DNA of 64,000 bases from Octopus vulgaris (Eukaryota): positions 61,876,001-61,940,000 of the forward strand of contig OX597815.1 of the NCBI GenBank assembly GCA_951406725.2, read 5' to 3'. A program made the translations under genes and the position numbers. Below are positions 159 to 59,328 of the stretch, one piece after another. The notes below the pieces were generated by a model, which was not told where the DNA came from, made no database searches, and saw only the letters and a program-made list of their open reading frames with translations. Within the stretch, counting starts at the first letter, position 1. Each line of letters begins with the position of its first letter.

Positions 159-433
159 TATTGTGTCTGGAGAGAGTCATTCTCTTTTAGTGTCTTATTA
201 TTTAACACACACACCTGTTCGATTTCCAATCATTTACTTCTTTATTTTTTCTAAAATTTTCGTTGCGTCTTGTAACCTTTTCAATAGTCGTTGAGAGTGA
301 ACGACTACTGAAAAGGTTGCAAGACGCAATGACAATTTTAGAAAAAGCAAATAAGTAAATGAGTGGAAATCGAACCGGTGTGTGTGTTAAGTAATAACGC
401 ACTAAAAGTGAATGACTCTCCCCAGACACAATA
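159..433. repeat. Inverted repeat (~135-bp arms, 7-nt loop) of a short HHR-bearing PLE-pLTR-like element
   Basis: 159-292 is the reverse complement of 300-433 with scattered mismatches; the same family recurs at 55760-55895 and 56654-56782. Confidence 0.9.
251..287 (-). ncRNA. Minimal type I hammerhead ribozyme, U3-A8 variant
   Basis: Minus strand reads CUA-UUGAAAA-G-GUUAC-AAGAC-GCAAC-GAAA-AUUU-UAG; one stem II mismatch. The partner at 305-341 (+) is degenerate (CUGAAAA, GACA). Confidence 0.6.
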
Positions 434-460
434 ATACACAAGCACACACATATATGTACA

Positions 461-601
461 TATTATTATTGTTGTTATTATTATTATTATTATTATTATT
501 ATTATTATTATTATTATTATTATTATTATTATTATTATTATTATTATTATTATTATTATTATTATTATTATTATTATAATTATTATTATTATTATTATTA
601 T
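461..601. repeat. (ATT)n microsatellite
   Basis: Direct sequence. Confidence 0.99.
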
Positions 602-2987
602 TTCGTTTAGGCACAGCGATATTAATAACCTAGGGTTAGAACTCAACATACATATGCTCAGAACAAAGCAGCAGTCGAGTACAAAACCGTTAGGTTATGA
701 GTGCATTGTAAGCTAATGAAGTTTATGACATAATTTCTTATTCTCTTGTCATTAATCTAATTTCTTAAACACACACACACACACACACACACACACACAC
801 ACACACACACACACACACACACACACATTTATGTTAAAGCAGTGTCAGCGCCAAGCAATGTTTAGGTGTAAGCGAAGTTTAGGTTAGTTAAGATAAATTT
901 GTGACATATTTCAACTGCTGAAGGCAAGTTCACTGCAGTTAGTGTAGAGAAAAAGATTCTCTTTTATGGTAAAAAGGTGTAAAAATACCATATGCTTGCC
1001 CCTATCTGGGAATCTGACAGGGAGCAGCACGGGATAAATTTGGTGTTTTTACACCTGTTCACCATAAAAGAGAATTTTTTTTTCTCCGCAGCAACAGCAG
1101 TGAATTTGCCTTTAAAAGTTGAAATACGTCACAAACATATTTTAACTAACCTATATATAAATGCGTGTACCAGCCCGGGATCATTATTGTCCAAACGACT
1201 CCTCAACAATTTGACTGTCGACATTGTTACATCACTGCCATGATGTAGAGAGTTCAAGTTTAATTAAGATTATTTTTCAAGGTCTAATTATAGATGTTAT
1301 CTTCTTTGTGAAGAATGGAAAATATCATTCCAATGAAGGGACATTATGGTAAATAACCAGTAAATAATTAGTTCTTATGTATCTGTATCACATCAGATGC
1401 TTAGGTGGTACAATTTTTTCACGTTAGTTTGCTTCATTTAAATCATAAACGTTTGTTCTGGCATCTCACCAATAAATAAAGATGGACGTTCGAAATCATT
1501 CAGGATAATATCGAAGCAATCTTTGATTGCTTTAGCTCGTTATTTGGCTGTTAGCTATTATGGCATATATCAGGTTATATGAAAAACTAAATGAGATATA
1601 CAAATTTTACATTACATCTTAGCCGATTTTCCATTCGAACCAAAGAATTTTTTTTCCTTCATTCATCCGTTACCGATTTTACCTGTCGGTTGTAACTCAT
1701 GACAGAAATACCACGGTTTTTTTTTTTCGGTAACCGAAATTCCGATTTGAACTCAGAACGCCAGAAGAGAACTGCAAAACATTATCTCCTCCCTTTAACA
1801 TTTCCACCATCCTGGCCTGGTACTTTATTACTGATCCTGAAAGAATAAAGAGAATATATATATATATATATATATATATATATATATATATATATATATA
1901 TATATATATATATATATAGAGAGAGAGAGAGAGAGAGAGAGAGAGAGAGAGAGAGAGAGAGAGAGAGAGAGATAGAGAGAGAAAGAGAGAGAGATAGATA
2001 GATATGTGTGTATATACATACATATACATACATATGCATATGCAGTATCTTGTTCTCTTATTGGTGTGATCAACAAAGAAGTACTTCATCCAGTGAGATA
2101 AATATAATTCAAAATTCAGGATTTAAATTCAAACTACAATTAGTTTCATACTTTTGATAATACAATTGTCAGACAAGCTTGTATAGAGTTCCATTTATTT
2201 TCAGTCAAACATGCAGACTTACAATATGGCTGCTCTTTGACAAAAAGGAAGAAAGAGCCAGAAAGTACGAGAGGAAAAGAGTAAAAGCTAAAAAGTAAAA
2301 CGAGAAAAACTGAAAAAAGAAGTATAGTGGGAAAGAAGATAAGAGCTGCGTCCCTTTGGTCCGTTGGAATGGGAATTAATATGGTTAATGTAATCAAATC
2401 AACAGGTAAATTTTAAAATTTGGGTGACTTCATCCTTAATCGAGAGATAGTTATACTTATTAAAAATTTCGGATTTAGAATTCTGTAGGTCGGTAGAGTT
2501 CTTAGATATAGAAAGGATATGAGTTATTTCGGCATCTGCACTTTCATTACTCATTAACGGATGGCATGGATCGTTCTATGATGTTTCACTTGATGGTGTG
2601 TGGTGTATTGTTGGTTTCAGGCTAACTTTGTAGTTTTCTTCTTATCGGAAAGAAGACTGGTGGTTGGCGTATCTTTTTTAAAATCACTTTCGCATATACC
2701 AATATACTTTTTCTTTTGAGTTTTGTTATTTTGTAGAACTGAAGTGCTTCAACCTTCGAAAATGACTGAGCTAATCTTGCAAGCCTGCTCCAGTGGGCAA
2801 GTTTGAGTGCCTCCACAGTTACAGTTTACTTTGTTATTATCATCAGAACCAAGTCATGTCAATCTTGATTTCGCAGATTTACAATTAAGAGTATTATTAT
2901 TATTGCTATTATTATTATTATTATTATTATTATTATTATTATTATTATTATTATTATTATTATTATTATTATTATTATTATTATTAT

Positions 2988-3510
2988 TGAGTGAGAGAGC
3001 AGCGCATACCATCAAAGTGTCACTGAGGTACAACTATACGAAGCCCAATATATCCATCATTACTAACTGTCACATGCATCACAACTATGTGTGCGCGATA
3101 ATGGTGATCTCATATCAAGATAAACAGTATATGACCTTGCAGGTGGGGCCCAGTTAGAATTTTCTTCAGATTGAGTAGCCCATCCCGCTCAAAAGGTCCC
3201 TGAATAAGGGTTGTTTAATGATGTTGAACGAAACATCAATGTTTCCGGACCTGAAATACCCAACAGATTTGCTCTCAACACTTGGCTATGATACTCCCCA
3301 ACTACTTCTGCATGTGATCAGAGGTGCTCATATCGTCAGCCATTAAGGGACATGTTCAACTGGTTACAGTCAAACAACTGACAAACACATCTGTGGTAAT
3401 GAGCAAAATATTTGCTGTAATCTATCTTTTATACCAAGACAAAACATGTACATGATAACACATCCAATCAGTTAAAATCAGAGGCCATGATGCTACTACC
3501 TGTAACAGCA
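2988..3510. mobile_element. Unclassified interspersed repeat bounded on both sides by (ATT)n; possibly a decayed RLE-type LINE fragment
   Basis: Complex sequence embedded between (ATT)n 2893-2987 and 3511-3528, like the neighbouring R4/Dong pieces; no diagnostic protein motif confidently read. Confidence 0.3.
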
Positions 3511-56782: not shown

Positions 56783-57511
56783 GAATATGCTTCAACACAC
56801 GCACTTACAAAAAGAAAAAAGCGAAAATGCACATTGGATATAAAAAATAAAGGCTTTTTTAAAAATAAAAAGTAACGATAAATATAAACAGTTAGACGAA
56901 CTGAGGTGGAATTAAGAGGAATAAAAATCATTATTTTGAATTGTTAAAGGGATTGAAAGTCATACCGGTATCGTCAATTTCTGTTCACTGGCTTTGAAAG
57001 CGCACCGATTACCAAATGGTGTTAGGTCTACTGGTCTCTGTGTAAAAAGATTATATGCAAGGGAGGTAAGTAGTTCTGAGAGTGGTGCAATTAGGGTAGA
57101 TGTAATGCTGTACTATGAGTGGTGTATGGAATGTATGGGAATTAGTGGTATTCATGGTAATATTAGTAGTATTCTGTATTATGTTTAAGTTATATATATA
57201 TATATATATATATATATATGTATGTATGTTTATATATATACATATCTATCTACCTATATATTCACTTATACATCCATCCATCCATCCATCCATCCATCCA
57301 TTCATCCATCCATCCATCCATCATCTATCTATCTATCTATCTATCTATCTATCTATCTATCTATCTATCTATCTATCTATCTATCTATCTATCTATCTAC
57401 CTATCTATCTATCAATCTCTCTCTCTCTCTCTATCTATCTATCTATCTATCTATCTATCTATCTATCTATCTATCTATCTATCTATCTATCTATCTATCT
57501 ATCTATCTATC

Positions 57512-58830
57512 TTGCGACATCTCAGGCTCTTCGTAGACGACGGTGAACAGGTGTGGTCGCCGTTTGTGAGGCACGCTTTCCCGCAGCTCGTCTCCATGAC
57601 CGAACTGCAGTCGTGGATCAAAAAGAGGACGAAGAAGGGCGAATGGCACCGCGAGTGTCGCGTTGCTCTCAAGCAACTCTGCCGTCCTAGGTCGACCTTG
57701 AGTGACTTCAACACAACCAAAGCATTCTATAGGGGATTAGTGGAAGGGAGATACGACGACGAGCTCGGGGCGAACCTGGACGTCGACGAGGAGTACCTGA
57801 CCCGCCTGTTCAGGACGACTTTCGGGCCAGGGCCCATGGACAACTTCCAGAGATCCCTGGCCTGGCAGTGCTACCGAGAAGCGCTACCCGTTCGGGATAA
57901 GCTCTACAGACACGGCTCGAGAAACACGGGGCCGACCTGCCCGAGATGCGGTCAGAGCGACGAAACCGTTCTGCACGCACTCGTGCAGTGTCCAACAATT
58001 TCCGACCTGTGGGCTTATGTCGAACGACTGCTGTCACGTGTGGGACGAGTCGGTTTATCAGCTGAGTCTATCGTCAATATTGTCACGCCTCCTTCCTTCA
58101 AGCGGGAGAAAGAGCTATTTTCATCATCCTTGTGGCTATGGCGAAAGAATGTATCTGGTGGACGCGTCTGAAAGGATTGGAGACAAACACTTTCCTCTCT
58201 GGTCAATCTCTCATCAACTTCTTCAAGTACCACTTGAAAAGGAAAGTGAGAGTAGAGAGGCAAGTTTTGTCCAGCGAATGTTTTAAAAAAAGATGGGTGA
58301 ATGTAGCAAGGATGGCACGTATGAATGACGAAGCCACCTTGAGCATAATCCTATGAACCCAGAAATTGAAAACAGAGGGTTACCCACTTGCAAACAAATG
58401 TGGTAACATATAACAATATTGACCAAGGTTACCGTGGTCTTTTTCGTAGGCTTTTCTTTCCACGGATAAACCTTACTTGCTTTCCCCTTTACACCATATA
58501 TCATAACACTGTGATACACGATCCCTATTGATCGTTTATTTTTCCTCTTCCCCTTTTTTTCCCCTTTTTTCTTCTTTTTTCATTTCTCTTTTCTTTTGTT
58601 CCTTTTCCTTTTCTTTTTTTTTCTTTTTATTCTTTTTATTTTTTATTTAATTTATTTATTTATTTTTGTTCTTTTCTTCCCTTTTACGAACCCTCTTGTC
58701 GAAAACCTACGCCACCCCCTTTTTTTCTTTTTTTTTCTTTTGTTTTTTGTTTTTTTCATCCCCCAAAAGAAAAGCTCTGCCTTGTAACTTGTCCCATCTG
58801 TGTGCAGCCCTGTGTGGCCAATAAAGAAAC
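57512..58830 (+). mobile_element. Tx1/L1-clade LINE 3' fragment inserted in (TATC)n
   Basis: [34 protein letters not shown]; one frameshift near 58108; (TATC)n on both sides. Confidence 0.88.
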
Positions 58831-59293
58831 TTATCTATCATCTATCTACCAATGTACATGTAGATAAATGCATTTCCATGAATATATGTAGATACATAGA
58901 TAGATACATATACATATACATACACACACACACACACACGCATATATATATATTTTTTCGTTTCTCGTTGAGTTTTACGTCTATTTGTGGTGTCCTGTAC
59001 ACACGTATATATATTTATATATGCATGTATATATACATGTAGATGTAGGTACGTACATATATGTTTGTATGTATGCATATATTTTATTTATTACACTATA
59101 TATATATATATATATATATATATATATATATATATGTATGTATATATATATATATATATATATATATATATATATATATATATATACATATAAAGTTAAT
59201 CCAAACAAGAAAGCACAAAGAAAACACAACAACGCGAAGACGTGGAACGAATATAGTATTATTGGACGCTCAGGAAAGAAGGAAAGAAGGAGG

Positions 59294-59328
59294 GTTTAAC
59301 GTTTCGAGCGGAGCTCTTCGTCGGAAAC
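59294..59328 (-). ncRNA. Minimal type I hammerhead (CCGACGA core)
   Basis: GUUU-CCGACGA-A-GAGC-UCC-GCUC-GAAAC-GUU-AAAC. Confidence 0.72.

Follow-up and report, generated by a model that had tools for sequence, protein, structure and literature searches.

Hammerhead ribozymes (HHRs) of animals are found in the pseudo-long terminal repeats (pLTRs) of Penelope-like elements (PLEs) and in retrozymes, including those without long terminal repeats (non-LTR retrozymes), and their role in PLEs is still open (PMC8557442; PMC11167929; here and throughout, statements about published work refer to the parts of it available to us). Two start sites of reverse transcription, together with a 'tail', have been called unique to PLEs (PMC11167929). 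In an anole element, HHR mutants did not block insertion in vitro, cleavage required protein, and RNA sequencing (RNA-seq) gave no ends at the cleavage site (PMC11167929). Motif counts, which are merely indicative between genomes because counting methods differ, stand at 126,247 in the 28.21 Gb of axolotl (~4.5 per Mb; PMC7229834; 10.64898/2026.07.22.740005), more than 6,000 in a coral and ~5,000 in a mussel (PMC7229834), ~4,000 in coelacanth and ~9,000 in X. tropicalis (PMC4209133), and 235 Rfam Hammerhead_1 matches in giant squid (PMC6962438). High Penelope abundance is known in coleoids (PMC8967140). Literature searches on hammerheads, Penelope elements and pLTRs, retrozymes and ribozymes in octopus and other cephalopods returned no octopus study of the motifs that we describe here. 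These lie in a 64,000-nt stretch of the Octopus vulgaris genome (hereafter the window; GenBank assembly GCA_951406725.2, contig OX597815.1; C2:61876001-61940000 of the 2.80-Gb assembly of 227 contigs). We consider it very likely that they are PLE pLTR hammerheads plus non-LTR retrozymes: the PLE hallmarks of two 3′ ends, inverted partners and (TA)n targets point to a mixture of 5′-truncated PLE ends and retrozymes.

The window, which has 36% GC and plentiful microsatellites, was scored with a strict type I HHR descriptor (YYGANRA core with a C3-G8, U3-A8 or U3-G8 pair; stems I and II each at least 3; loop II region <45 nt) and with a widened one that admits a helix II of up to 110 nt, or a 2-bp stem I, or U at position 6. 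Local dinucleotide shuffles of the window (n = 60) served as background, and its repeats were compared by masked self-BLAST. For the genome sample, contigs 1-24 contributed 40 segments of 10 kb each, placed at round coordinates; contigs 25-30 lay outside it. A preliminary description, made from the letters of the window, had listed 20 HHRs and proposed a shuffled control; that control bears it out, with 10 window matches to the strict descriptor against a shuffle mean of 0.53 (maximum 2), and 7 against 0.23 when stem I was required to be at least 4. Relative to shuffles, matches are enriched ~20-fold in the window; for the genome sample the factor is 12.

An HHR-like motif is present at all 20 listed coordinates, some of which need correction. 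Fourteen fit a descriptor: ten the strict one (cores, with the sign giving the strand, at 284-, 25597-, 29445-, 29464+, 33242-, 33307+, 54101+, 55568+, 55892- and 59324-) and four more the widened one (27808-, 54916+, 18379+ and 36279+). Five are decayed members of families that have passing members (305+, 24887-, 33733-, 33963+ and 56654+; cores 308+, 24919-, 33771-, 33969+ and 56657+), and one is a singleton. The exact CUGANGA core occurs in 5 window matches, and 22 of 35 matches carry an extra base after A9. At 27808- the motif exists but the real core lies 80 nt upstream, at 27892-, the listed position being its 3′ half. The YYGANRA core, claimed for all sites, holds for most but not for 36279+, whose core is CTGTTGA, with A6 changed to U (A6U). 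Stem III, described as almost always palindromic, is so in 8 of the 10 strict matches; in family C it is an imperfect palindrome, ACTCCGAGT, and 44509- has none. The 'roughly ten families' became ten multi-copy families in the window (A, B, C, D, D2, E, F, G, I and J) plus the single-copy H. This last motif (44509-, core 44544-) has a perfect core, stem II and GAAAC, with ambiguous stems I and III and one match genome-wide. Tried as type I and as type III, it folds cleanly as neither; the segment 44490-44560- is compatible with a damaged type III or a weak type I fold, and is the sole single-copy HHR-like motif. The membership of 19 of the 20 sites in real HHR families is confirmed, and a chance origin remains for 44509- alone.

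The proposal that these families spread by PLE machinery is supported by two 3′ ends, inverted partners, TA-rich targets and the presence of HHR-bearing intact PLEs in the genome. A TA run lies 40-300 nt downstream of 30 of the 35 matches, against 25% of random positions. Family C gives the most direct link. Its 3′ ends fall into 7 short and 13 long among 20 loci, ~75 nt apart, and 12 of the 20 loci have an inverted partner. In one locus the HHR is preceded, without a break, by a 1.2-kb 3′ untranslated region (UTR) and the C terminus of an open reading frame (ORF); this locus is 92% and 88% identical to two others over 1.7-1.9 kb. The ORF has 150 scored relatives with 87-100% identity, many in 727-aa open frames and some forming direct pairs 3.36 kb apart. 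It has no Pfam match but resembles Atlas clusters, one of which has GIY-YIG in 18% of its members, and contains cysteine motifs that we take to be those of a PLE endonuclease. From the ORF C terminus, the Atlas lead and these motifs, the family C sequences are 5′-truncated 3′ ends of what is predicted to be a protein-coding, endonuclease-bearing PLE. The families had all been described as non-coding; this does not hold for family C, and probably not for family J, whose direct pairs lie 5.6 kb apart.

A second PLE family, a young one found with an RT (reverse transcriptase) remnant of the window as query, has intact 775-847-aa frames with RT and GIY-YIG. In one of its loci (L202) a U3-A8 HHR stands on both sides of the ORF; this HHR is not among the 20 of the window. 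Loci of this family (L201, L202, L204, L209 and L210, for example C13:52242001-52252000) show a ~2-kb 3′ UTR that is largely TG/TA microsatellite-like, and head-to-head pairs that are 99.8% identical. The co-occurrence of HHRs with PLE RT and GIY-YIG remnants, also claimed for the window, stands in so far as the remnants are there; as far as seen, none is continuous with any listed HHR. The window HHRs were considered as parts of the remnant at 40518-41825, and this was rejected because relatives of the remnant carry a different HHR (TTGATAA...ACTAGT, in 4 of 15 loci). The remnant at 26289-26560+ is followed by a probable 3′ UTR and a 3′ end at 27238-27462+, with an inverted end copy at 26075-26287; within 26075-27462, a decayed AAACGTT-GTTGG may be what is left of a 21st hammerhead. 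Beside the endonuclease remnant at 9258-9565+, an inverted RT-like piece at 8689-9180 has no Pfam match, and we take it to be of PLE type from its motif. Together, the sequence data establish the PLE link for one family and strongly indicate it for others.

Family G is, by its sequence, a non-LTR retrozyme under the working definition of 10.64898/2026.07.22.740005. Sequence downstream of its HHR runs back into sequence upstream, as in a head-to-tail unit. In a set of 30 loci chosen for a long 5′ extension, 11 have two intact HHRs 360-369 nt apart, and none has three or more on the same strand. The monomer from cleavage site to cleavage site is strongly self-paired (z = -7.85 linear, -7.4 circular). 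The 3′ ends cluster at +171 to +178 (22 of 50 rows, with a few loci double-counted) and again from ~+230. Thirteen of the 30 long copies reach further in the 5′ direction than the upstream cleavage site, which suggests that the template was often an uncut multimer or a circle and agrees with the unprocessed RNA template of the anole element (PMC11167929). A cleaved linear template, with 5′ ends piled up at the cleavage site, did not hold up in this set (1 of 30). Seven of the 30 long copies (L112-L128) begin within a few bases of TAGG, the 5′ edge of the upstream HHR helix I; these starts probably arose through TA microhomology with the target. No RNA record was listed as carrying family G. 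In contigs from three presumed-RNA runs and one run of unstated kind, depth over family G falls toward the 5′ part in two of the former and in the latter alike, with no pile-up of ends among the listed data; as ends are not visible in contigs, this weighs neither for nor against expression.

Families E and I are probably retrozymes like G, to judge from their repeat arrangement. Family E forms a 600-nt unit in partial tandem, 27620-27739 recurring at 28220-28339 with 1 mismatch; its core at 27892- has a 6-bp stem I and a ~59-nt helix II region, and by coordinates its direct pairs lie 599 nt and 2.9 kb apart, C4:31209964-31213050 being an interval of the latter kind. Family I, which also shows two 3′ ends, has direct pairs elsewhere that lie 527 and 564 nt apart by coordinates. 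Family J is different in scale: 40 of its 40 best matches are 100% identical, direct pairs lie 5.6 kb apart, with C1:79444915-79450618 as one such interval, and head-to-head pairs are many, which together suggest a putatively active long element, and it is probably the truncated end of a coding PLE. At 54916+ it has a helix II region of ~87 nt and a stem I with just 2 contiguous bp. Families I and J were considered as one element with two ribozymes and this was rejected, their genome matches not being co-located and J starting where I stops. The best 40 matches of family D are 97-100% identical, and a dinucleotide run ends all 30 loci examined; 5′ ends vary, one copy reaching further upstream, and no second 3′ end was seen among the copies examined. 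Family B is old (79-89% identity among matches), and the one stem I mismatch at 18379+ is replaced by perfect pairing in 4 of 5 relatives. For families A, B, D, D2, F and J, the loci examined gave no link to an RT or GIY-YIG ORF.

Family D2 carries the A6U core. Its copies were collected by stem II and helix III sequence, with the core left out of the search, and positions 3-7 read CTG-T-N in all 16 distinct copies. N7 varies freely (A in 6, T in 6, C in 3 and G in 1), and G8-A9 is retained in 14 of 16. Three passing copies occur in the 400-kb genome sample against 0 in shuffled sequence; A6C and A6G cores had 0 matches in the window and the genome sample. Between D and D2, stem I shows a two-sided change from G-C to C-G, with 99% of cells paired, in what are related sequences and one event; the pairing score was reached by 3 of 500 shuffles. 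A natural A6C hammerhead with k below 0.1 per minute is on record, and the available text of that paper holds no A6U (PMC3088659). Our literature search found no natural A6U hammerhead (only a twister match), and the novelty of A6U is not established.

Several observations weigh against reading the motifs as working ribozymes of PLEs and retrozymes. The G10.1-C11.1 pair was scored in only 19 of 35 matches. Among the 30 family G loci chosen for a long 5′ extension, the 5′ end falls within 2 nt of the predicted cleavage site in 1, and in 7 it coincides with a TA-containing motif that lies 30-38 nt further upstream. Covariation within families is thin, amounting to the one two-sided change, and pairing across families is built into the descriptor. 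Cores with U4C, A6U or a stem I of 2-3 bp are expected to be slow (PMC3088659), and Xenopus dimers cleaved in vitro in 1 of 9 cases (10.64898/2026.07.22.740005). A coding parent was found for 1 of the 10 window families, and for A, B, D, D2 and F the loci examined gave neither such a parent nor a tandem unit. Catalysis and expression of the window motifs are predictions.

The alternative that survives best is that the HHR fold persists for structural reasons, acting in the PLE ribonucleoprotein as a signal for protein binding, folding or RT pausing, and that most of these families can do without cleavage. We regard this as possible though rather unlikely. It would account for A6U being fixed in 16 of 16 D2 copies, for U4C in B, C, D and G, for the 2-3-bp stem I of A and J, and for family G templates running past the upstream cleavage site; it also fits the normal insertion of anole HHR mutants in vitro and the lack of RNA-seq ends there (PMC11167929). 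However, the families conserve the covariation of C3-G8 with U3-A8 as well as a non-G H17, and in D2 only N7 varies freely, a pattern that catalysis would impose; moreover, cleavage and circularisation of related retrozymes are on record for coral, mussel and axolotl (PMC7229834). Less probable still, and in our view improbable, is what the preliminary description implied, namely that all families are independent non-autonomous retrozymes, similar to short interspersed nuclear elements (SINEs), that move through circular RNA. This is true in form for G and probably so for E (600-nt partial tandem) and I (527/564-nt pairs), and the uniform length of D copies at ~190 nt would suit it; against it, C is continuous with a coding ORF, direct pairs of J and of E are separated by 5.6 kb and 2.9 kb, and the 5′ ends of D differ, with one copy longer upstream, as truncation would give. 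Chance matches in AT-rich, hairpin-rich repeats, an explanation open to the single-copy, uncleanly folding 44509- and in keeping with the five sites that fail the descriptor and the lack of any Rfam match at threshold, are most improbable for the set as a whole given the excess over shuffles in window and genome, 2 matches in reversed sequence against 22, and the shared position near PLE-type 3′ ends.

With PLE pLTR hammerheads and retrozymes as the preferred reading, we propose that PLE reverse transcription would start at either of two sites ~50-250 nt downstream of the ribozyme, on a nick in TA-rich DNA, so that the HHR region would always be copied first. Copying would usually end early, often with an inverted copy added, and the genome would accumulate HHR stubs, single or head-to-head, and the majority of these would decay and do nothing. 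Such early stops after the HHR would make stubs outnumber coding remnants and would leave no listed HHR attached to the remnants of the window. Since head-to-head ribozymes lie on opposite strands, a cis dimer would be possible only in tandem or two-repeat copies, and most copies, being solo or head-to-head, are probably inert. Selection would maintain the ribozyme only in a few source copies, in tandem or with two terminal repeats. In these, two HHRs per transcript would pair through the palindromic helix III, probably with the assistance of protein; the paired HHRs would cut out the unit RNA, which might be circularised, and short non-coding elements would borrow the PLE protein. Cleavage, dimer fold, circles and protein help are proposed by analogy with other species, and the conserved core pattern also predicts cleavage.

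In the genome sample, the first descriptor matched 22 times against 3.05 in shuffled and 2 in reversed sequence, and the union of four descriptors 24 times against 2.0, or 55 per Mb (Poisson 33-84); the exact CUGANGA core alone gave 11 against 0.2, or 27 per Mb (13-49). Extrapolated to the genome, the union corresponds to roughly 150,000 motifs (range 94,000-236,000). The same union matches the window 11 times (~170 per Mb), about three times the density of the genome sample. The 'one per 3 kb' of the preliminary description is right for the window if decayed copies are counted, but the genome sample holds about one fitting motif per 18 kb. Rfam returned no hammerhead among the best 150 of 522 rows for the window, which were mostly microsatellite hairpins matching microRNA models, and 0 hammerhead matches at gathering level in 6 loci carrying these motifs. 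Standard Rfam annotation misses most of the motifs, and cephalopod hammerhead counts are probably far too low for that reason. At least 8 further HHR families occur outside the window, and in some of them the helix II region spans 55-100 nt (L203:3674, L208:5207, L041:6587, L040:22 and 3879, L038:1761, L047:100, L051:8309/8390, L056:9959 and L059:9253).

Tentatively, and against our own expectation, the octopus might hold the densest animal HHR load that we have found reported, with intact motifs on the order of 10^5 spread over dozens of families, both PLE and retrozyme, of which several would still be moving; the A6U core might be active, perhaps only with PLE protein, helix II might have been lengthened to 60-100 nt, and solo copies in ordinary transcripts could be cut in trans via shared palindromes. 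Such cutting by RNA of active copies is conceivable because some families share helix III palindromes, ACGT in D and D2 and ACGTACGT in E and I. Among the many young families that exist in parallel in this genome, some have identical copies and intact coding parents. Since their cores (CUGA, CCGA, UUGA..A and CUGU), helix II and palindromes differ, the need for cleavage, dimer pairing and protein could be compared directly. The abundance and the A6U family are of interest to specialists and not startling.

Table 1. Hammerhead-bearing repeats and PLE remnants in the window (positions counted from its first nucleotide).
Feature	Positions	Strand	Details
Family A left arm, head-to-head	158-296	-	core TTGAAAA (U3-A8) 284, H17 254; family sequence reaches ~85
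Family A right arm	297-434	+	decayed: core 308 C3/A8, GAAA box broken
Broken PLE endonuclease remnant	9258-9565	+	
Family B HHR	18379-18423	+	core CCGATGA 18384, palindrome ACTTCGAAGT, H17 18418
Family C-type HHR, decayed	24880-24927	-	core CAGACGA 24919
Family D, ~190 nt	25467-25670	-	core CTGACGA 25597, H17 25571, ends (TA)n
Broken PLE endonuclease C terminus	26289-26560	+	~60% identical to family C parent
Family E	27620-28339	-	core CTGAGGA 27892, long helix II, H17 27814
Family C inverted short arm, short 3′ end	29375-29454	-	core CCGACGA 29445, H17 29416
Family C arm with longer 3′ tail	29455-29580	+	core 29464, H17 29493; 5′-truncated PLE end
Family F left arm	33121-33273	-	core CTGAAGA 33242, palindrome ACAATTGT, H17 33207
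Family F right arm	33274-33427	+	core 33307, H17 33342
Family G retrozyme, one ~360-nt unit	33508-33875	-	core 33771; stem II mutated here
Family G inverted partner	33876-34114	+	core 33969; stem II mutated; 3′ part cut off by LINE-like piece at 34113
Family D2 HHR	36276-36319	+	A6U core CTGTTGA 36284, H17 36311
Broken PLE remnant: RT, cysteine-bearing linker, GIY-YIG start	40518-41825	+	no HHR attached
Single-copy HHR-like motif H	44490-44560	-	core CTGATGA 44544
Family I element, ~500 nt	53969-54467	+	core CTGACGA 54101, H17 54150
Family J, 5′-truncated	54465-55238	+	core CTGAAGA 54922, H17 55025, very long helix II
Family D	55496-55693	+	core CCGACGA 55568, H17 55594; inverted partial partner ~55380-55464
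Family A head-to-head pair	55759-56783	both	core 55892- fits; 56657+ has A9 -> C
Family D	59190-59399	-	core CCGACGA 59324, H17 59298

Other repeats accompany these features. Two related repeats that end in TA runs, K and L (20401-20558-, 28768-28925+, 19888-20044+, 31740-31950- and 32620-32781+), have a split pattern: a helix (GAGCA/TGCTC in K, GAAGG/CCTTC in L) closes just ahead of GAAA without a preceding CUGANGA, and a CTGA(T/A)GA box stands 30-35 nt downstream of GAAA. No standard hammerhead fold fits, and type II was rejected for lack of a stem I; the pattern recalls the 'HHR_half_core' cases of PMC8557442. A mariner-type transposon occupies 10523-11795, with long open frames, Transposase_1 and HTH_48 matches and 39-nt terminal inverted repeats. 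Remnants of long interspersed nuclear element (LINE) type with RT and zf-RVT lie at 3739-5401-, 34113-35067+ and 57592-58541+. Inverted-repeat elements without a hammerhead are found at 880-1153 and at 47448-48545, the latter with 278-nt arms that are 96% identical and flank a (CCCTAA)-like repeat. A SINE-like repeat, presumably the octopus tRNA-derived SINE, is very abundant (28944-29330, 53023-53215 and most sampled loci).

Finally, we compared these motifs with known systems. The general pattern is already known from other animals, with motifs standing alone, pairs on opposite strands and the U3-A8 core all on record (PMC4209133). The motifs of that paper share with ours the type I fold, an absent or palindromic helix III, the extra base after A9 and the U3-A8 core, the many families per genome, mostly solo and with few inside full elements, and opposite-strand pairs 100-700 bp apart. 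They differ in number, at ~4,000 and ~9,000 there against an estimated 94,000-236,000 here with other descriptors, and its available text does not describe helix II regions of ~60-100 nt, an A6U core or this host. Giant squid has type I hammerheads in a cephalopod as well, but no PLE link is given in the part of that paper at hand, and the Rfam gathering score misses the motifs studied here (PMC6962438).

Non-LTR retrozymes (PMC7229834; 10.64898/2026.07.22.740005) resemble family G in its ~362-nt non-coding head-to-tail unit with a self-paired monomer and in one type I HHR per unit with a 6-bp stem I and a 4-bp stem II; its size is like that of the 350-390-bp mussel repeats (PMC7229834), and it lives beside autonomous PLEs. 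No cephalopod is treated in the available portions of these two papers. Unlike those retrozymes, G occurs mostly as dispersed copies of 1-2 units and as inverted copies, not as long arrays, and PLE-type double 3′ ends are directly visible in it. With PLEs, the octopus families share the inverted 5′-truncated partner, an optional tail at one end and (TA)n targets (PMC8557442; PMC11167929), as well as two RT start sites and an unprocessed RNA template (PMC11167929); their tails, at ~55-130 nt, are longer than the 30-40 nt given there (PMC8557442; PMC11167929). What is new is the host, the density and the variants, and the biology itself is known in kind.

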